This document shows, in pieces, positions 2,863 through 62,986 of a stretch of 64,000 nt of DNA. The stretch spans positions 32,001 to 96,000 of IMG/VR virus record IMGVR_UViG_3300043444_000140; one strand, 5' to 3'. Within the stretch, counting starts at the first letter, position 1. The number at the start of each line of letters is the position of its first letter. Source of the stretch: a virus. Below the pieces are notes generated by a model. The model ran no database searches. It was given only the letters and a program-made list of their open reading frames with translations, and had not been told where the DNA came from. The position numbers and the translations under genes are program-made.

Positions 2863-4449
2863 ATGGCACAAAGAATGCAGCAAAGAAGAGGAACTGCTTC
2901 TCAATGGACATCTGCTAATACCGTTTTGGCTGCAGGTGAGATTGGTTTTGAAACAGATACCAATCAGTTTAAGATGGGTGACGGAGTTACCGCCTGGTCT
3001 TCACTATCGTACTTTAAGAACTTTGAAGATCTAGATACTAGCGGATACATCAAGGATGAAGAGAAGGGTGCCAATAATGGTGTTGCTACTCTCGATGGCT
3101 CTGGAAAACTAACATCCTCACAACTACCAACAATTGACGAACTAGCACAAGATGCTATAAATACCGCAATTATTGCAGGTAGTGGAATTGTCAAGGATTA
3201 TGACGATACAGCCAACCAGATTACAATTGCCGTTTCCGAATCTATCTCTACAACACAATACGTAGACGACGAGATTTCAACACACAATGGTGTCACGACA
3301 AACGTGCATGGAATTGCAGACACATCTCTTCTGGTCACTACAGCAGGAACCCAAACACTTACAAACAAGACATTGTCTGCTGCAGACAACTCCATCACTG
3401 TAAATCTCGCTGACGTTGTTGATGTCACCGCCTCAGTATCAGAATTAAACATTTTAGATGGTGCAACGCTAACAACTACAGAACTTAACTACGTTGACGG
3501 GGTGACCTCAGCGATTCAAGACCAACTGGACGATAAGGCTAATCTTTCTGGTGCAACATTTACAGGTGACGTAACTGTAGAAACAAACATCATCGTTGAG
3601 GGAAACCTTACCGTTTCTGGAACAACGACCACAATAGATGTTACAAATCTAGACGTTACAGACCCACTAATCTATTTGGCTTCAGAGCAATACGATGCAG
3701 ACGTACTTGACATCGGTATTTTTGGTGCATATGGAGATTCAAATCCTGGACACGCACATACAGGTCTTGTCCGTGATGCATCTGACGGAGGTAAGTGGAA
3801 ACTTGTTTCTGGAGCATCAGAGCCAACAGCAAACGTAATTGACTTTACTGGAGTAACATATGACACGCTAAAGGTTGGAGCACTTGAGACTGCAGGTATT
3901 ACTGCAACTGGAGATGTAGACTTTACAGGTGCAACAGTGACTGGAATTGATGCACTTCCATCTCAAACTGGAAACAGTGGAAAGTATCTTACAACAGATG
4001 GCACAGATGCATCTTGGGCGACCTTAAATGCAAGCCCAGCACTTGACGACCTATCTGACGTAACAGTCACTTCAGCAGCATCTAGTGACGTTGTATACTA
4101 CAATGGCTCTGCTTGGGTGAACAAGTACGTTCAGTCAATTCCAACCCTTACAAATGGTCAGTCTGGAACATCGTATACCTTGGTTCTTGGAGATGCTGGT
4201 AAAATTGTCGAAGTTTCAAACTCTTCTGCAATCACTCTAACTATTCCAACTAATGCCGATGTCGCATATCCAGTAGGAACACAAATCACAATTCTTCAAA
4301 CAGGTGCAGGACAAATTACTGTGGCTGCTCCTTCTGGCGGTACTTTAAATGCTACTCCAGGAACTAAACTTCGTGCTCAGTGGTCATCTGCAACACTTCT
4401 AAAGAGAGCAACAGACACCTGGGTGCTGATCGGAGACCTGACAGCATAA
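2863..4449 (+). CDS. tail fibre protein with an Mtd_N-like N-terminal domain
   Basis: QQRRGTASQWTSANTVLAAGEIGFETDT..KMGDG N-terminus; fibre motifs (TQTLTNKT, ELNYVDGVTSAIQ); C-terminal ..TDTWVLIGDL domain. Confidence 0.75.
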   Translation: MAQRMQQRRGTASQWTSANTVLAAGEIGFETDTNQFKMGDGVTAWSSLSYFKNFEDLDTSGYIKDEEKGANNGVATLDGSGKLTSSQLPTIDELAQDAINTAIIAGSGIVKDYDDTANQITIAVSESISTTQYVDDEISTHNGVTTNVHGIADTSLLVTTAGTQTLTNKTLSAADNSITVNLADVVDVTASVSELNILDGATLTTTELNYVDGVTSAIQDQLDDKANLSGATFTGDVTVETNIIVEGNLTVSGTTTTIDVTNLDVTDPLIYLASEQYDADVLDIGIFGAYGDSNPGHAHTGLVRDASDGGKWKLVSGASEPTANVIDFTGVTYDTLKVGALETAGITATGDVDFTGATVTGIDALPSQTGNSGKYLTTDGTDASWATLNASPALDDLSDVTVTSAASSDVVYYNGSAWVNKYVQSIPTLTNGQSGTSYTLVLGDAGKIVEVSNSSAITLTIPTNADVAYPVGTQITILQTGAGQITVAAPSGGTLNATPGTKLRAQWSSATLLKRATDTWVLIGDLTA

Positions 4450-4970
4450 TGGCACTATCAATTGGTAGAGTAGCAGCATCAGTTAGAAAACGCTTTGTTG
4501 ACACGTTTACTAGAACCAATACGTCTGGCTCCCTGGGTACCGCTACCGATGGATCTTCTTGGAATGCCACAAAAGGAACATTTACTGTAGACACCAACAA
4601 GGCAAAGGCAGCAACTACCGACTATCAGATTGCAACTCAGTCAATGCCATACCCAAACGTTGACCTTACGATTAAGTCTGTAACACAGGGTACTGGTGCA
4701 GCATTGTGGGTTACAGACTCTGGCAATTGGTGGGCAGTTGGCACAGACACTGGAGCAGGACAGTCCTGCAACTGTCAAACATGTTCTAATGCGTCATACG
4801 ATCCTGGATACTATTATGCTGGAAACACAAACTATGTTTATTCATGCCAGACATGCTCTAGTTATGGATGTAGCACATGTTACAACGCTTATACATGTCA
4901 GACATGTTATAACGCAAGCAATGCGATCTACTACTATCAGTCTTCAAACGGAGCCTGCATGATGCAGTAA
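4449..4970 (+). CDS. N-terminal part of a Cys/Tyr/Asn-rich fibre-associated protein
   Basis: ATG 4449 overlaps the upstream TAA; beta-rich half-domain (DTFTRTN..GSLG) followed by CxxC repeats. Confidence 0.7.
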   Translation: MALSIGRVAASVRKRFVDTFTRTNTSGSLGTATDGSSWNATKGTFTVDTNKAKAATTDYQIATQSMPYPNVDLTIKSVTQGTGAALWVTDSGNWWAVGTDTGAGQSCNCQTCSNASYDPGYYYAGNTNYVYSCQTCSSYGCSTCYNAYTCQTCYNASNAIYYYQSSNGACMMQ

Positions 4971-4987
4971 GGGAAAGGTATAGAAAA

Positions 4988-5470
4988 ATGGGAAGAACTT
5001 GTCTTATTGGTTACAACGCTAGCAATCCGTATTCGTGCAATTGTAGCGGAGGTAACGCATACTCTTGTAACTGTTCAACAAATTATTACTCTTGTAACTG
5101 TGCCACTAACGTTTCTGGGTACAACTCTGTCTATGTTGCACCATCATATTATGCAGGATATACCTATAGTTGTAACTGTCAAACATGCTATCCAATTTAC
5201 ATAAGAGTAATCCAGTCAGCAGCATCTGTGATAAGCACAATAACAACATGGACACTAACTGCTTTAGCCCAATCACTGAGAATCAAGACAAACTCAAATC
5301 AGATTACCGTTCAGGCATTTTCAGACGACAGTCTAGTAACTCAGATTGGATCAGACCTGGTATACACTGGTTCTGGTGTAGTAGTAACATCAAACTATGG
5401 AATTGTAGTTTATCCATCTTCAACTTCCCAGGGTACTACCCTAGGAACAGTTGAGATTAATAAAAACTAA
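4988..5470 (+). CDS. C-terminal part of the same Cys-rich protein (split or frameshifted gene)
   Basis: CNC repeats mirroring the upstream ORF, then a beta-rich half-domain; frame open from 4913. Confidence 0.65.
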   Translation: MGRTCLIGYNASNPYSCNCSGGNAYSCNCSTNYYSCNCATNVSGYNSVYVAPSYYAGYTYSCNCQTCYPIYIRVIQSAASVISTITTWTLTALAQSLRIKTNSNQITVQAFSDDSLVTQIGSDLVYTGSGVVVTSNYGIVVYPSSTSQGTTLGTVEINKN

Positions 5471-5495: not shown

Positions 5496-5732
5496 ATGTC
5501 AGAAAACTTACCAGTAGTACCGACACTAGATAGTGCGGTTCCAGTACCAAGAAACAACGACTATGACCTAGCAATGGTCATTGAGGGCGTAGTTTATGAG
5601 GTCATGAACGTAGATGGAAAGTCTGCAGCCAGATTCTTGGCACAGCCTACCTTTGTTCAGGTCGCAGCAAACTCAGTGTTTCCTGGATGGGTCTACAACT
5701 CAGACACTCAAACATTTTCGCAGCCAGAGTAG
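5496..5732 (+). CDS. small fibre-accessory protein (paralog of 6438..6818)
   Basis: SD AGGAGG; LAMVIEGVVYEVM..ARFLAQPTFVQV motif. Confidence 0.7.
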   Translation: MSENLPVVPTLDSAVPVPRNNDYDLAMVIEGVVYEVMNVDGKSAARFLAQPTFVQVAANSVFPGWVYNSDTQTFSQPE

Positions 5733-5763: not shown

Positions 5764-6438
5764 ATGAAACTAATACACTTTTTTGCTAAAAAAGAATTTG
5801 ACGATTTAGGTCAGCCTTTACCGATGAAAAACGTTCTGCCAGACTGGTGGAAAAACGGTGAGGCTGATCTTTCGTCTGGTGAAGCAGGAATGAAAAAATG
5901 CATCCCATTCCTAGACGTAATGTTAAGTGGGTATACGCTTACCACACCGATCGATATTTTTGTATCTAAAAAAGAAGATGGATCTGTCCACGTATCGTGG
6001 AATGCAGAAAAGGGTCTTGCAGATTTTGTTGGAGACAGACCAGAAGAGTTGGGGAGAACTATTCCTAGACCAGCAGGTCACCTAGACACGCACTTTGTCT
6101 TTAAGGGGTTTTGGGGCTGGAAGGTTCCAAAGGGGTACTCTGTACTAGTTACCCACCCATTTAATAGATTTGATCTACCATTCACAACAATGTCAGCACT
6201 TATGGATAGCGACGAATTTTACCCACCAGGAAATATTCCGTTTTTCCTAAAGGACGGCTTTGTTGGTGTCATTCCTGCAGGAACGCCATTTGCACAACTG
6301 CTACCAGTAAAGAGAGACTCCTGGAAGATGATTGATAACAATCAGGGACTTATGGATTACCACCACATCCACAACGTTGTTAGAAAGCCAGGTAACTCAT
6401 ATAAGAAACTTATGTGGCACCGAAAGGAATACAACTAA
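5764..6438 (+). CDS. DUF6065-like (dUTPase-like fold) protein, copy 1
   Basis: KKCIPFLD..SGY; WKVPKGYSVLVTHPFNR; IPAGTPFAQLLPVKR. Confidence 0.6.
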   Translation: MKLIHFFAKKEFDDLGQPLPMKNVLPDWWKNGEADLSSGEAGMKKCIPFLDVMLSGYTLTTPIDIFVSKKEDGSVHVSWNAEKGLADFVGDRPEELGRTIPRPAGHLDTHFVFKGFWGWKVPKGYSVLVTHPFNRFDLPFTTMSALMDSDEFYPPGNIPFFLKDGFVGVIPAGTPFAQLLPVKRDSWKMIDNNQGLMDYHHIHNVVRKPGNSYKKLMWHRKEYN

Positions 6439-6818
6439 TGGCTAAGAAAAAGTTTGAAGAGAAAGATCATCTGCACAAGCATCAGCACAGCGATGGACCA
6501 GTAGTTATGTCTACGCTAGATCTTATTAAGTTGCTTCTTTTGAATAAGTTTGCTTTTGGACCAAAGGATCCAGTAGAGGATGAAGAGATTGAAGTGCTTA
6601 GAGAGCGAAAGACTCCAAAGAATGTTTCCATAAATCACATTGCCGTAATCTTAGACGGTCAGGTGCAGGAAGTTATCCGTGCAGAAAATAGGCTAGCAGC
6701 ACTACTTCTTAGCGATCCAGAATTTGTTGAGTTCGATGTTCACCAACAAGTTATGGTTGGAGACTATTTTTCAGACGGTAAGTTTATAAAGGGAGATTTA
6801 GATGGCAAAGAAGATTAA
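6438..6818 (+). CDS. small fibre-accessory protein with a His-rich N-terminus (paralog of 5496..5732)
   Basis: TAATG overlap; IAVILDGQVQEVI..ALLLSDPEFVEF. Confidence 0.7.
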   Translation: MAKKKFEEKDHLHKHQHSDGPVVMSTLDLIKLLLLNKFAFGPKDPVEDEEIEVLRERKTPKNVSINHIAVILDGQVQEVIRAENRLAALLLSDPEFVEFDVHQQVMVGDYFSDGKFIKGDLDGKED

Positions 6819-7500
6819 GTTTTACTCTACTAACACAAAGTTTGAACTAGAAAAGCCAGTACCAGCATCAAAGGCAGTTCCTCAATGGTTTAGGAAAATG
6901 AAAAATGTCAAAGATCACAACATGACAATTAAGAGATGTGTTCCAGTTCTAGATGCACTAACATCTGGATATATGATCACTCTGAATGCTGACATGATCT
7001 GGGATAACGAGTCTGAGTCATTCCTGACTAAATCAAAACTCCCTATGAACTCAGATCACATGCCAATGCAAACAGAAGACATGGATATCTCGGATGACCT
7101 TGCTCCACAGCCACACAAATGGCTAAACTATTGGTACATAAAGACACCACCAGGATACAGCACACTCTTTGTTCATCCACTCAACAGAACAGACCTACCA
7201 TTCCAAACAATTGCTGGTGTCGTGGATACTGACAAGCATCCAACTCCAGTAAACTTTCCATTCTTCCTGAAGAAGGGTTTCTTTGGCACTATTCCTGCAG
7301 GAACTCCGATAGTTCAAGCAATACCCTTTAAGAGAGATGACTGGAATGCCAAGATTATTGATCAAGGCAAGTCATACTCTTATCCAAAAGCATTTGAGTC
7401 CTTTAACCCACCTTTTGCGTGGTATAAGCGTAAGTGGTGGACAAGAAAGAGGTACTCTGTAGATAATACAAAAGAGGTAAACCTACATGACGAGCAATAA
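6802..7500 (+). CDS. DUF6065-like protein, copy 2
   Basis: KRCVPVLD..SGY; IKTPPGYSTLFVHPLNR; GVVDTD; IPAGTPIVQAIPFKR. Confidence 0.6.
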   Translation: MAKKIKFYSTNTKFELEKPVPASKAVPQWFRKMKNVKDHNMTIKRCVPVLDALTSGYMITLNADMIWDNESESFLTKSKLPMNSDHMPMQTEDMDISDDLAPQPHKWLNYWYIKTPPGYSTLFVHPLNRTDLPFQTIAGVVDTDKHPTPVNFPFFLKKGFFGTIPAGTPIVQAIPFKRDDWNAKIIDQGKSYSYPKAFESFNPPFAWYKRKWWTRKRYSVDNTKEVNLHDEQ

Positions 7501-7774
7501 ACTTCCAAAAGTTCCAAAACTTGTACCACCAACAAACGCAGAGCCAAAACTTAAGCCTGTCAGACCGTGGGATCTATTCAATAAAAATAAAGAGCGTGTT
7601 TCAAAAGACATTAAAGATGAAAGAATGTCTATATGCGAATCATGCCCATTCTTTATTCAATCAACAAAACAGTGTAAAAAGTGTGGATGTCTTATGCACT
7701 TAAAAACACAACTTGCAGATGCATATTGCCCTATGGGAAAGTGGCACCAAGTAGATCCTTCTTTTAAGGAATAA
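7487..7774 (+). CDS. small Cys-rich metal-binding protein (DUF6171-like)
   Basis: ERMSICESC..QCKKCGC..AYCPMGKW. Confidence 0.65.
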   Translation: MTSNKLPKVPKLVPPTNAEPKLKPVRPWDLFNKNKERVSKDIKDERMSICESCPFFIQSTKQCKKCGCLMHLKTQLADAYCPMGKWHQVDPSFKE

Positions 7775-58340: not shown

Positions 58341-60212
58341 ATTAAAAAACCCCAAAGATTTTTCCTAGCGTTGTTACTAGCCTTTGCACCACTTCTTGTA
58401 GCATCTATGGCTTTTGCAGAGACAAGAGCGGAGTACGATGCAGTCGTGGCTTCAGCACAGGCTAAAGTTTCTGCTGCCCAGGAGGCTCTCAGTAGGGCAC
58501 AAGAGGCTTATAACTCAGCAGTTGGTGCTGGAGTATCCCTAGATTCGCAAATAGCACAGGCAGAGCAGGCACTAGGTGTAGCCCAAGCAGCCTACGACCA
58601 GTCCCAAATTCCAGATCCAGCGTGGACCAGACCGCTAAAAGAGGAAATCTATACTGTTAGTGTTCCGTACACAGTTCAGGTTCCATATACAGTCATAGAA
58701 CAAACTACGTCTCAGGTGTCTAGAACCATTCAGGTTCCACACACAGAAACGGTAACGACAACAAGCCAGGTTGCTCGTACAACATATGTTACCAGCGGTG
58801 GAATAACTGCAGAAATGTATAATCGACGAGGGTATAATCAAGCACCACCGCTACCATATGCAGGAGAGACCCCAGTCCTAACGACAACAGTGCCAAACAT
58901 TGACTTTCAGTGGGGTGGAGGGTATATCCTTCAGGAAGGTAACGTGTGGTATGGGGAAGACGTTGTTGTCAAGTTTACTGGCAACCTGTTGTTTCCAGCA
59001 GATGGACAGTATCAGTTCTATGCCCCAGCAGACGATGGTGTCATCTTTGACCTTGCTGGTATGAGGCTGATCAGCGACTGGGTAGACAAGGGTGGAGGAG
59101 GATCAGTTACCCAGCCCGTCAACATTATGGGCGGTGTTCTTTATCCTTTCACACTGTACTACTATGAGAATGGTGGTGGAGCATGGGTTCAACTAAATGC
59201 TAAATTAGTTAGTGATGCAAATTTCCAGGTAGTTCCAGCAGCATGGTTAGGAACACAGGTAACGGAGACAACCACATATGAAGACGTAACAACCACGTCT
59301 GAAGTAATTGTCTACACAGAAGAGGTGGTGATTGACACGGTTATCACCGATGTTGAGGTAACTCTTTTCAGAGACGAAGTTGCATACAGAGAAGAGGAGC
59401 GAATCCGCTTAGTTCCAGATGAAGATGCAGAGCACCCAAAGATCAAGAATCCAGATCTCCTCCCAGCGATATCTGACGCACAGTCTAATCTAAACAATCT
59501 TAAGAGTTCTAAGGCTCAAAACTCAGGTATAATAGAAGCAGCATCTGCCGATGTTAGCACAAAACAACAGGAGTTAAATGTCGCTCAACAAGAATTGGAA
59601 GCCATTCCACCATTCAGAGAGCCAACACCTACGCCTACGGAGACCGAGAGCCCTTCTCCAGAGCCAACAGAAACTGAGCCTGAACCGCTACCAGAGCCAG
59701 AGCAAACAGAAACCCCCAAGCCAGAACCAGAACCTGAGTTACGAGTAGAAGAAGCGGTATCTGAGATTCAGAATCTGGTAGAAGTAGCACCAGAAGAACT
59801 GACAGATGCCCAGGCAGAACAACTTGTCGCAGCAGCCCTCGTTGTATTTGAAACAGCAGAGCAAGGCTCACCAGCATATGAACAGGCACTAGAGGCACTT
59901 GCCGTTGCTGCTATTGCAGATGACCCACAATTGCCAGCAGAGTTAGCAGCCATTCCTGGAGCAGAAGCAGTTCTAGAAACATTTAACGCCATTGGAAACG
60001 TGGGGGCTGACATGTCTCCAGAGGTTCGTGAAGAAGCAGAACAAACGGTTATCGCATCTGTTATTGCTACAGGTGCAGCAGTAAATGCAACGGTTGCAGC
60101 AGCCACAACTGCAGCAGCCACAACAACTTCGTCATCAGGTGGTTCGTCTGGTGGCGGTGGTGGAGCATCAGGATCAAGTTCTGGTGGCAGAACAAATAGG
60201 AAGGTGAACTAA
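58341..60212 (+). CDS. exported PA14-domain surface protein (probable ATT start)
   Basis: PA14 motifs (IDFQWGGG, APADDGV, YYENGGGA); signal peptide; Pro/Glu/Thr linker; Ala-rich C-terminal segment and basic tail. Confidence 0.8.
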   Translation: MKKPQRFFLALLLAFAPLLVASMAFAETRAEYDAVVASAQAKVSAAQEALSRAQEAYNSAVGAGVSLDSQIAQAEQALGVAQAAYDQSQIPDPAWTRPLKEEIYTVSVPYTVQVPYTVIEQTTSQVSRTIQVPHTETVTTTSQVARTTYVTSGGITAEMYNRRGYNQAPPLPYAGETPVLTTTVPNIDFQWGGGYILQEGNVWYGEDVVVKFTGNLLFPADGQYQFYAPADDGVIFDLAGMRLISDWVDKGGGGSVTQPVNIMGGVLYPFTLYYYENGGGAWVQLNAKLVSDANFQVVPAAWLGTQVTETTTYEDVTTTSEVIVYTEEVVIDTVITDVEVTLFRDEVAYREEERIRLVPDEDAEHPKIKNPDLLPAISDAQSNLNNLKSSKAQNSGIIEAASADVSTKQQELNVAQQELEAIPPFREPTPTPTETESPSPEPTETEPEPLPEPEQTETPKPEPEPELRVEEAVSEIQNLVEVAPEELTDAQAEQLVAAALVVFETAEQGSPAYEQALEALAVAAIADDPQLPAELAAIPGAEAVLETFNAIGNVGADMSPEVREEAEQTVIASVIATGAAVNATVAAATTAAATTTSSSGGSSGGGGGASGSSSGGRTNRKVN

Positions 60213-60921: not shown

Positions 60922-61790
60922 TGAAAAAACTAATTAGCATTGCGTCAGCAGTTGTTCTAGCACTATCTGTTTCTCCAGCACAAGCAAATGAAAATACATC
61001 CGTAGTGATTATTGATAGTGGGTTTGATAGTGAACTTCTTAATCCAATTAAAGAAGTTTGCATCCTAGTAACCAAGAATTGCAACAACGGCACAGCATTT
61101 GACGACTCGATCGGAGCATCTGATACAGGTCTGACATTGATGTCAAACTGGAAATCGGAATGGGCACATGGAACCAAGATGGCAGACATCGTACGCCAGA
61201 TCAATCCGAGTGCAGACATTATTCTTATTCGTAATGCTATCGTAACACCAAGAGGTGCAGTAAATATTGGCGGTACCAAAGAGTTTGAATTGTCATTGCA
61301 ATGGGTAAAAGACAATGCCAAAAAGTATAACATCTCTGCAGTATCTTTCTCACGTGGATCAAACACGTGGACCAAAACTGGCAAGGGTTGCCCGATTGAT
61401 GCAGGCATTCAGTCTAAGATTGTAGACTTGCAATCGCTTGGTGTTGCTACAGTAATCGCTGCTGGAAATAACGGAGACAAGGTGAACGTTAGTTATCCTG
61501 GTTGTATTCCAGAGGCTGTTACCATCAGTGGTATTTACTCACAGAACTACACTCCAAAGATTTGGTCTTCGTATCGTGAGACTCGTGGCACTAACTCTGG
61601 ATTTCTAACGGACTTCTTTGCAATGGGCAATTTCAAGACTATTGCTGGACCAGTCGCTGAGTCCACATCATCTTCTGCTGCTGCTTTTGCAGGGTATTGG
61701 AGCAAGGTCTACAACGCATCATACCAGCAAACCTATAACAGTATCCTGCAGTCTAGCAAAAACAAGTTTGTGGATGTTATTAATCAATGA
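60921..61790 (+). CDS. secreted subtilisin-like (S8) serine protease
   Basis: Signal peptide AQA; IIDSG, HGTKMA, AAGN, STS catalytic motifs. Confidence 0.82.
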   Translation: MKKLISIASAVVLALSVSPAQANENTSVVIIDSGFDSELLNPIKEVCILVTKNCNNGTAFDDSIGASDTGLTLMSNWKSEWAHGTKMADIVRQINPSADIILIRNAIVTPRGAVNIGGTKEFELSLQWVKDNAKKYNISAVSFSRGSNTWTKTGKGCPIDAGIQSKIVDLQSLGVATVIAAGNNGDKVNVSYPGCIPEAVTISGIYSQNYTPKIWSSYRETRGTNSGFLTDFFAMGNFKTIAGPVAESTSSSAAAFAGYWSKVYNASYQQTYNSILQSSKNKFVDVINQ

Positions 61791-62986
61791 CCAATCTATT
61801 CTTAAGTGGACCGTTTGACTATAAGGGTAAGGGCTGGGGCTATGCCCACTATTCCTATGGCTTTGCCATGGAATCTTTTGCGGAGGTAGCGACTAAAGAG
61901 GATTCTGTGTGTGGATACTTCTCGTATCCGTTTACTCTTGGATCTGCCAAAACCCAAATGAGGCAGTACAAGGATCCAGTCAGCATATCCTTTTTGCCAC
62001 CAGACGTGGCTCTACTAATACCAAGACAGAAAAACATCTGTGTGTTTGCATGGGAGTTTGATAGGTTGCCAGTAAAAAGCGATGGGAACAATGGTATCTT
62101 TAAAAAGGATTATGCTTCTACACTAAAGAAGTTTGACCATGTCATTACGCTATCGTCCTACTCCCAGTCAGCCCTGAAGACGTATGGGATAGATTCTTTT
62201 GTGCTTCCTTCAGCAGTATCGCCAAAAGAGATTGATCCTGGAGAGTCTATTGACGACTTGCCATGTTACACACTAAGCACAGTCTCAGACTATTACAAAG
62301 ACCATGAGCCAGAATCATTAGCAAACTTGTTAGACAAATCGGATCATGAAAAAAGATTCCTCTACATTCTTAACCCACACGACATTAGAAAGAACTTTGG
62401 CAACCTTGTTACGGCATTCGTAAAATTTAGACAGGAACATCCAGACGCAATTCTTTTGCTTAAAATGACTGCACAGGGAGATCTTGGGAAGTTGCAGGCA
62501 ACCGCTTTTAGGAGAGAGTTTCCTTCATTCCCAGAAACAACGTTCGACAATGTTTATTTTATTCCACAAAAGTTGTCGGATAGCGAACTACAAATGCTAA
62601 TTAACTCTTGTCAAAACTATGTGTCTCCTAGTCGTGCAGAGGGGCAGAACCTGCCATTATGTGAGGCTATGGTATCTGGCAGGGTATGCATAACTCCAGA
62701 TCATACATCAATGAGTGATTACGTTACTAACGATTCGGCAATTATTCTTGAGTCCAATACCTGGATGATAGATGAATCTACGCACAAGTACAAAGACTTC
62801 TGGGGATTCTCATGGTTTAATGTGGGAGAACAGACAATTCTTGATGCACTTAATCGGGCAATATCATTGACATCAGAAGAGAAAACTGCTATGCTTAATA
62901 AAGCAAAACAGAACGTAGAGAACTTTTGCTCACCAGAATCAGTTCTTCAAAAATGGCAACAAATAAAGTTGCAAATAGGAATCTGA
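61787..62986 (+). CDS. glycosyltransferase (GT-B, GT4-like)
   Basis: AWEFD, RKNF, PSRAEGQNLPLCEAM. Confidence 0.85.
   Translation: MTNLFLSGPFDYKGKGWGYAHYSYGFAMESFAEVATKEDSVCGYFSYPFTLGSAKTQMRQYKDPVSISFLPPDVALLIPRQKNICVFAWEFDRLPVKSDGNNGIFKKDYASTLKKFDHVITLSSYSQSALKTYGIDSFVLPSAVSPKEIDPGESIDDLPCYTLSTVSDYYKDHEPESLANLLDKSDHEKRFLYILNPHDIRKNFGNLVTAFVKFRQEHPDAILLLKMTAQGDLGKLQATAFRREFPSFPETTFDNVYFIPQKLSDSELQMLINSCQNYVSPSRAEGQNLPLCEAMVSGRVCITPDHTSMSDYVTNDSAIILESNTWMIDESTHKYKDFWGFSWFNVGEQTILDALNRAISLTSEEKTAMLNKAKQNVENFCSPESVLQKWQQIKLQIGI

Follow-up and report, generated by a model that had tools for sequence, protein, structure and literature searches.

The window analysed here is a stretch of 64,000 nucleotides of viral DNA, positions 32001-96000 of the IMG/VR record IMGVR_UViG_3300043444_000140. 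The record is a 107-kb virus genome, ~99% complete, that encodes a portal, a prohead protease, DnaB, Pol III alpha and a class I ribonucleotide reductase (RNR). The subject is a pair of adjacent genes near the start of the window, open reading frames ORF1 and ORF2, which between them carry twenty regularly spaced cysteines in two arms, one arm on each gene. On balance, the two polypeptides appear to assemble into one tail-fibre-tip protein, with the arms antiparallel and stapled together.

Both genes lie on the + strand. Directly upstream is a tail fibre gene (2863..4449, + strand, 528 amino acids (aa)) that matches Pfam Mtd_N (E 3.8e-13) as well as PHROG tail fibre and minor tail protein families. 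Its stop codon overlaps the start of ORF1 (ATAATG), and fibre homologues stand directly 5' of members of the ORF1/ORF2 family in most related loci; this overlap and the conserved gene order point to a tail-tip role for the pair. ORF1 (4449-4970, 173 aa) encodes the N-terminal half of a predicted ConA-like core (aa 1-106), followed by an outgoing cysteine arm (aa 107-173), and ends at a TAA stop codon (4968-4970). A spacer of 17 nucleotides (nt) (4971..4987, + strand) contains the Shine-Dalgarno-like GGGAAAGG 9 nt before the ATG of ORF2 at 4988. ORF2 (4988-5470, 160 aa), which is in the -1 frame relative to ORF1, opens with a return cysteine arm (aa 1-67) and closes with the C-terminal half of the core (aa 68-160). 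On translation, the two arms are thus in different reading frames and on separate genes.

Each arm has 67 residues and 10 cysteines. The outgoing arm (4767..4967) reads CNCQTC-20-CQTC-4-CSTC-5-CQTC-16-C, with a CNCQTC base, three CxxC rungs and one apex cysteine; the return arm (4988..5188) reads C-11-CNC-7-CNC-6-CNC-23-CNCQTC, from an apex cysteine through three CNC rungs to a CNCQTC base. The Cys-to-Cys gaps of the outgoing arm (2, 3, 21, 3, 5, 3, 6, 3, 17) are mirrored by those of the return arm counted backwards (3, 2, 24, 2, 7, 2, 8, 2, 12). The original prediction had described such a mirrored 20-cysteine pattern at 4767-5188, in arms rich in Tyr, Asn and Ser, together with a repeated DNA sequence. 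Motifs and spacings prove exact on translation, and the composition counts agree (outgoing/return: Tyr 13/11, Asn 8/10, Ser 9/10, one charged residue each). Histidine is outside the seven commonest residues of either arm, and the printed arm sequences have none. The flanking 199 residues contain no cysteine, + strand ORFs of at least 150 aa in the window average 0.42% cysteine, and the pattern is confirmed as real, far beyond chance. The repeated TACTCTTGTAACTG occurs at 5060 and 5087, against a chance expectation of 0.02 matches. Both arms have a tandem duplicate of 27 nt (9 codons), at 4862/4889 in the outgoing and 5060/5087 in the return arm, and the 17-mers encoding the two CNCQTC bases are 94% identical. 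A DNA palindrome was rejected as the source of the mirror: the inverted repeats are two weak ones (76% and 85% complementary), and the 27-nt repeats are direct.

An exhaustive HMMER search with ORF1 (E <=1e-3) finds at least 214 clusters (50% identity), most of them single chains 300-570 aa long, and scans of IMG/VR and metagenomes yield 57 loci, of which most originate from lake metagenomes. All family loci outside the window's own clade have a single ORF, in which an N-half and a C-half enclose a hypervariable insert, usually with CNCQTC at its first boundary and CNCQTCYP at its second. No model in Pfam, PHROG or NCBIfam matches ORF1 or ORF2, and neither ORF has a match by blastn or tblastn in 50,697 phage records. 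The family profile finds chance-level matches only among PDB sequences (E 0.14), and no description turned up in literature searches that covered DUF6171, ladders of cysteines or disulfides in phage, tail fibres rich in cysteine, and the tail proteins of freshwater actinophages. That neither a family model in those three collections nor a paper on the family was found is in keeping with the original remark that this is no recognised class of receptor-binding protein.

Some family members have no cysteine (for example L018-L026, L048-L055, P0049, P0057, P0059, P0060, P0068 and P0069). Their inserts, of up to ~400 aa, are built from short hexapeptide-like repeats rich in Tyr, Thr and Ser, such as PYTSNx and TYTxGx. 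On the tree of the core the Cys-free state amounts to ~3 changes, and the window belongs to a well-supported group that mixes both states. The inserts of two of 125 members match Pfam LbR_Ice_bind, the beta-roll of a grass antifreeze protein (best E 4.7e-07). These matches probably fall on GN(Y/F)V-type heptad repeats, which are present too in the split-clade proteins P0014 and P0005, and they hint that some stalks may be roll-like.

The core was modelled with AlphaFold2 for the single-chain homologue P0018 (predicted local distance difference test, pLDDT, >90) and for a read-through of the two genes of L033, with stops read as Gly (pLDDT 97-98). Both models yield the same core, a two-sheet jelly-roll beta-sandwich. 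Because the L033 read-through folds as one core, the products of ORF1 and ORF2 are predicted to be complementary parts of one domain, in keeping with the earlier proposal that the flanks of the arms are halves of one beta-rich domain. VIA-align places the core close to ConA-like folds, with Z scores of 16.4 over 148 residues for CBM66 (4B1M), 16.1 over 171 residues for the Douge baseplate chain (BppU carbohydrate-binding module (CBM), 8ZDO) and 15.9 over 171 residues for the C-terminal receptor-binding domain of TM4 gp23 (9N6A). Foldseek adds VIP36, ERGIC-53 and J-1 Dit CBM2, and the BFVD matches include many actinophage minor tail proteins; together with a PASTA domain encoded elsewhere in the genome, these tail-protein matches are consistent with a lake actinophage. 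Among the 125 members scanned, the core has no match in Pfam, nor does it fit any sequence model already available for Laminin_G_3, DUF7257 or a CBM family. As modelled, it is of the ConA-like carbohydrate-binding-module type and a candidate for carbohydrate binding. The CBM of Douge binds mycobacterial cell-wall glycans (PMC13033339). Actinophage CBMs of this kind share the beta-sandwich fold of the predicted core and its position in the tail module, but only 9-12% of its residues. We know of no long Cys-laddered out-and-back insert and no two-gene split in Douge, TM4 gp23 or CBM66, whose structures were not inspected for them.

Pairing of the arms

Inserts were cut out of 155 distinct single-chain members with hidden Markov models for the two halves. 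Cysteine is absent from 34 inserts; its number is even in 120 (from 4 to 42 or more) and odd in one, while 151 of the 155 N-cores and all C-cores are Cys-free. The sole odd insert, in P0133, has 17 cysteines, and a base CxxC stands opposite CNC where the usual base has six.

The spacing of the cysteines follows the same mirror rule as in the window. The mean absolute gap difference is 2.08 in mirror register, against 5.51 in parallel register and 5.04 after shuffling (Wilcoxon p ~1e-18, n=116), and the mirror register beats the shuffle mean in 97% of the 116 proteins. The numbers of rungs match as well. In a subfamily that has independent sequence landmarks on each arm, the cysteines before the outgoing landmark outnumber those after the return landmark by exactly one in 15 proteins out of 15, at values of 6, 7, 8, 9 and 11. 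The idea that the hairpin is built from addable rungs, varying in number among homologues as matched pairs, is borne out across these five rung numbers. Facing short gaps are also of complementary type: CxC is opposite CxxC in 155 cases, against 8 of CxxC/CxxC and 3 of CxC/CxC (11 like-with-like).

Sequence variation is distributed in the same register. Among six 22-Cys proteins, the poorly conserved segments are 5-7 (identity 0.72, 0.49, 0.48) and 15-17 (0.46, 0.60, 0.57), which are exact mirror partners (i with 22-i), and the base and apex segments have identities of 0.83-1.0. In the mosaic L020, segments 7 and 15 switch together. Between L015 and L012, rungs of SPSYP type and GGYYYA type move from one arm to the other, each type still opposite the other. 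Parity, mirror spacing, matched rungs, CxC facing CxxC and facing hypervariable segments together argue for an antiparallel two-stranded stalk, the cysteine-stapled hairpin that had been proposed. These signals recur in very different subfamilies and are not expected from repeat expansion or from a parallel solenoid. In the AlphaFold2 models the insert is placed between two adjacent strands of the core.

Several points weigh against this reading. The proteins are related and the tests not fully independent, so that the p-values overstate independence. AlphaFold2 gives the arms low confidence (pLDDT 35-57 in the L033 read-through and 46-74 in P0018) and leaves them unmodelled, neither paired nor refuted. 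As AlphaFold2 yields no arm structure, it is the comparative statistics that carry the case for pairing.

The variable tip of the original prediction, a receptor-binding knob on a stalk as in ultralong antibody third heavy-chain complementarity-determining regions (CDR-H3), is contradicted. Disulfides of an ultralong CDR-H3 lie in the knob, and its stalk has none. Here, the cysteines run along both arms, no knob is evident in the sequence and, subfamily by subfamily, the apex is the best-conserved part of the arm (83-100% in the 22-Cys proteins, against 46-60% for mid-stalk rungs); in the window it is cut. What the two have in common is a pair of long strands projecting from a beta-sandwich, which in the bovine antibodies serves recognition, as outlined in PMC10523490. 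The hypervariability of the facing mid-stalk segments makes these the likely specificity surface.

Rung chemistry and alternatives

The rungs are most likely disulfides, forming a sparse cystine ladder, which we hold to be roughly twice as probable as metal sites. Disulfides are favoured because most relatives have one cysteine per arm per rung, which in a monomer can only be a disulfide, and because Cys-free relatives replace the ladder: they keep the insert with its Tyr/Thr-rich repeats, so the stalk can exist without ligands. The mirror register is that of an antiparallel cystine ladder, and the cysteine number is even in 120 of the 121 Cys-bearing inserts. The known case is theta-defensin, in which successive parallel Cys-Cys links run from one to the other of two antiparallel strands (PMC13408038). 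The antiparallel strands and the mirror register of cysteines are alike; the differences are in scale and in backbone. Theta-defensins are cyclic peptides of 18 residues with cysteines at every second position, whereas here the rungs are 6-24 residues apart on 67-residue arms, the family ranges from 2 to 21 pairs, and the arms belong to large proteins with no cyclic backbone, in the window even to two chains.

Some features fit disulfides less well. A CxxC facing a CxC is awkward in a regular antiparallel ladder unless the strands are bulged. The redox-switch zinc centre of Hsp33 uses four cysteines from one CxC and one CxxC, the set found in the three inner rungs and the base here, which favours metal at such rungs; Hsp33 differs in that it has a single site in a compact chaperone domain, lacks both repeat and hairpin, and is not homologous. 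The protein is assembled in a reducing cytoplasm, where metal sites can form. A trimer would permit metal sites even at single-Cys rungs.

A stalk of the same architecture may therefore be held by metal-thiolate rungs, each CxC/CxxC rung binding one Zn (or Fe) through four cysteines and the six-Cys base forming a small cluster, with single-Cys rungs in need of an oligomer such as the trimer. We regard this as possible, if rather unlikely. The 155 to 11 excess of CxC facing CxxC fits it, as do the six invariant cysteines of the associated DUF6171-like protein, which are as expected of a metal-binding protein. It accounts poorly for the single cysteines of most family rungs, which offer no site in a monomer, and for the relatives that retain the insert without any ligands; nor do the arms supply His or Asp partners.

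The T4 long tail fibre protein gp37 offers a precedent for metal staples. Its tip chain reportedly emerges from a globular collar domain, extends along a thin needle and comes back, as set out by Bartual et al. 2010. The likeness to a disulfide-laddered or metal-laddered stalk is an out-and-back chain stapled at regular levels in a phage host-recognition device, and here too the insert leaves and re-enters between adjacent strands, in mirror register. The needle of gp37 is held by seven Fe ions (PMC6957217), bound by HxH motifs of the three intertwined chains of a homotrimer. The repeated ligands along the arms here are cysteines, paired and without His in place of the Fe/HxH staples, and no homology was detected between the two systems. 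The head at the tip of gp37 is the binding site, whereas the apex here is conserved or cut.

The insert could also be a low-complexity, largely unstructured linker or decoy, its cysteine regularity a product of repeat expansion and its arms unzipped. The strongly biased composition, the tandem DNA repeats and the missing arm structure in AlphaFold2 would suit such a linker, and the beta-roll matches of two relatives are a hint of a solenoid-like alternative. Repeat expansion predicts a parallel regularity, however, and the parallel register fits worse than the shuffle. Nor does it predict a ratio of 120 even to 1 odd, equal rung numbers about the landmarks or the joint switching of facing segments. 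Between the window and L033, a metagenome contig 85% identical to it, the ratio of nonsynonymous to synonymous substitution rates (dN/dS) is 0.045 in each arm (0.068 in ORF1 and 0.091 in ORF2, at dS ~1), a value that speaks against such a linker or decoy. An unstructured linker is improbable.

The split between ORF1 and ORF2

The original prediction treated 4449-5470 as a single fused product; the locus has two cistrons instead, and the split is kept down to ~52% identity. The contigs L033 and L034 have a spacer of 15 nt, which puts the two ORFs in a common frame interrupted by TAA and TAG; the frame of ORF2 is closed a single codon upstream of its ATG. In the window and in L001 the spacer has 17 nt and ORF2 is in the -1 frame. 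The nine ORF2 homologues (128-171 aa) all begin MGR-x-C, eight of them on the called start and one, P0003, on a 1,150-base contig whose frame is open beyond the called gene. The best ORF1 homologues, two of 170-171 aa and one of 150 aa, end a few residues past a conserved SNG(A/S)C. In the distant ORF1-type relatives P0010, P0011 and P0014 the tail past the last cysteine differs in length and sequence, while MGR-x-C is invariant. Independent assemblies (JGI, NCBI, ENA and Logan) all contain the split, with ORF1-type products of 150-171 aa and ORF2-type products of 128-171 aa.

The remaining rival, a single polypeptide fused by a programmed -1 frameshift or other recoding at 4910-4970, or else an assembly error or fresh pseudogene, has in its favour that most relatives are single chains and that the ORF2 frame is open from ~4910, so that a -1 shift before the TAA at 4968 would join the ORFs, but it can be dismissed as very improbable, given the Shine-Dalgarno-like motif before the ATG, dN/dS below 0.1 and the recurrence of the split across assemblies. 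A conserved frameshift is excluded, because in L033 and L034 the ORFs share a frame with two stops between them; owing to the 2-nt spacer indel, neither the frame relation nor the shift site is conserved. The same arrangement was the ground on which a programmed frameshift and an assembly error at the junction were rejected.

The split is old and selected. In the window's clade the apex consists of two chain ends with a conserved cysteine beside each (GAC-MMQ and MGRTC), which suggests that these form a last, interchain rung. None of the 155 inserts is that of an unsplit relative with the same apex motifs (SNGAC / GRTC). The GNYV-type repeats common to P0014 and P0005 suggest that these two sequences form a pair with 5+5 cysteines.

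The two-chain stapled protein that we favour would be put together as follows. The Cys-free N-half from ORF1 and the C-half from ORF2 would complement each other into a single ConA-like beta-sandwich, from which the two 67-residue arms extend and come back side by side, antiparallel. They would be stapled at ten levels: a six-Cys base (CNCQTC/CNCQTC), three CxxC/CxC rungs and one apex cysteine pair. Most relatives would form a true hairpin from a single chain, and in this clade a stop, a ribosome-binding site and a start would have taken the place of the loop. Matched rungs would be gained and lost on both arms, here through the 27-nt duplications. The lectin-like core would be a second candidate glycan-binding site beside the mid-stalk surface. 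A tail-tip protein of carbohydrate-binding fold is known in phages; judged by its sequences, what would be new is a rule-governed stalk module, here naturally split. The rule can be read from sequence: each cysteine has a mirror partner, and rungs and variable segments occur in facing pairs. It indicates the pairing residues and the probable specificity site, and it describes a natural scaffold whose length can be adjusted. By dividing the hairpin at its tip, this clade offers a complementation experiment with two chains already set up; if the model is right, the split shows that stapled arms alone can join two chains.

Downstream accessory genes

ORF2 is followed on the + strand by a small protein of 78 aa without cysteine (5496..5732), a first phrog_7084 paralogue (5764..6438, 224 aa), a second small protein that is a paralogue of the first (6438..6818, 126 aa), a second phrog_7084 paralogue (6802..7500, 232 aa) and a DUF6171-like six-Cys protein (7487..7774; CxxCP ... 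CxxCGC ... CPxGKW). The last scores 26.3 bits against Pfam DUF6171 (E 1e-5), just under the cut-off of 27, and also matches phrog_13558 (E 1.8e-15) and the DUF6171 clusters of the Atlas (score 0.94).

This gene order is that of Cys-rich loci, among which a shorter set of small protein and DUF6171-like protein also occurs. Homologues of the 78-aa protein stand directly 3' of Cys-rich members only, the DUF6171-like protein co-occurs with Cys-rich tip proteins, and the first phrog_7084 paralogue follows Cys-rich and Cys-free members alike. All 17 of 17 Cys-free loci are without the first small gene and the DUF6171-like gene; the phrog_7084 pair stays, starting at an offset of -37 to +3 from the end of the family gene. 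L018 and L019, which are Cys-free, are without both genes despite a window-like backbone (fibre E 5e-183, next gene E 3e-154). To judge by gene content, it is the number of cysteines in the tip protein that the accessory genes follow, not the phage backbone.

The association extends beyond the ConA family. IMG/VR contains at least 595 loci with DUF6171-like genes, with invariant PWD, CxxC, CxxCxC and CP..KW motifs. In a set of these (L060-L138), an ORF with at least 8 cysteines lies on the same strand within 4 kb upstream in 55 of the 68 loci with enough upstream sequence, against 13 of 71 in the downstream control, and several of these upstream ORFs are outside the family (for example L088, L091, L094, L098, L116, L119, L126 and L135). 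On the phage contig that carries L023 and L126, no DUF6171-like gene lies beside the Cys-free family member; the contig has one 257 nt from a different protein with 14 cysteines. The genome of the window itself has a second tip module, upstream of the window (L059:4473-6304, genome 28472-30303). It comprises a fibre-like gene ending TWVLIGDLKS (with the ..WVLIGDL motif of the window fibre), a PASTA-domain protein whose C-terminal part has 10 cysteines, a small protein of 103 aa and a DUF6171-like protein of 81 aa (22.5 bits against the Pfam cut-off of 27), and it has no phrog_7084 genes.

Two points weigh against the association. The loci L027 and L028 are Cys-rich yet have no accessory genes within 4 kb, and the ~3 changes to the Cys-free state on the tree leave few independent contrasts. 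The member in these loci (L027/L028:3488-4372, in an 8.4-kb locus) has 20 cysteines and is followed by a protein of 579 aa, with another of 526 aa further along.

The small protein (5496) and the DUF6171-like protein (7487) are reasonable, though uncertain, candidates for maturation factors of Cys-rich tips. They would act as dedicated folding, oxidation or metal-loading factors, and the link gives DUF6171-like proteins a testable function; it also prompts the question of how a phage gets the Cys-rich parts of its virion folded when the cell is reducing. More tentatively, phages of lake actinobacteria may possess an undescribed modular host-recognition device, whose ladder is installed by this phage-encoded pair. 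If so, the device would be a lectin-fold head with a length-tunable, Cys-laddered stalk, in which facing rungs are swapped, duplicated and diversified as cassettes, and a phage system would equip virion proteins with ladders of disulfides or metal within the cytoplasm of the bacterium. Receptor-binding proteins set the host range of phages, and next to nothing is known of them in the abundant freshwater phages that are uncultured.

The phrog_7084 paralogues have their only matches, among the phage records searched, in 49 records of haloarchaeal viruses, HF1, HF2, HRTV and HJTV among them, at ~30% identity over the full length. Elsewhere in the window, a PA14-domain protein (58371-60212) and a group-1 glycosyltransferase (61787-62986) adjoin the replication and nucleotide-metabolism genes (Pol III alpha, DnaB and class I RNR).

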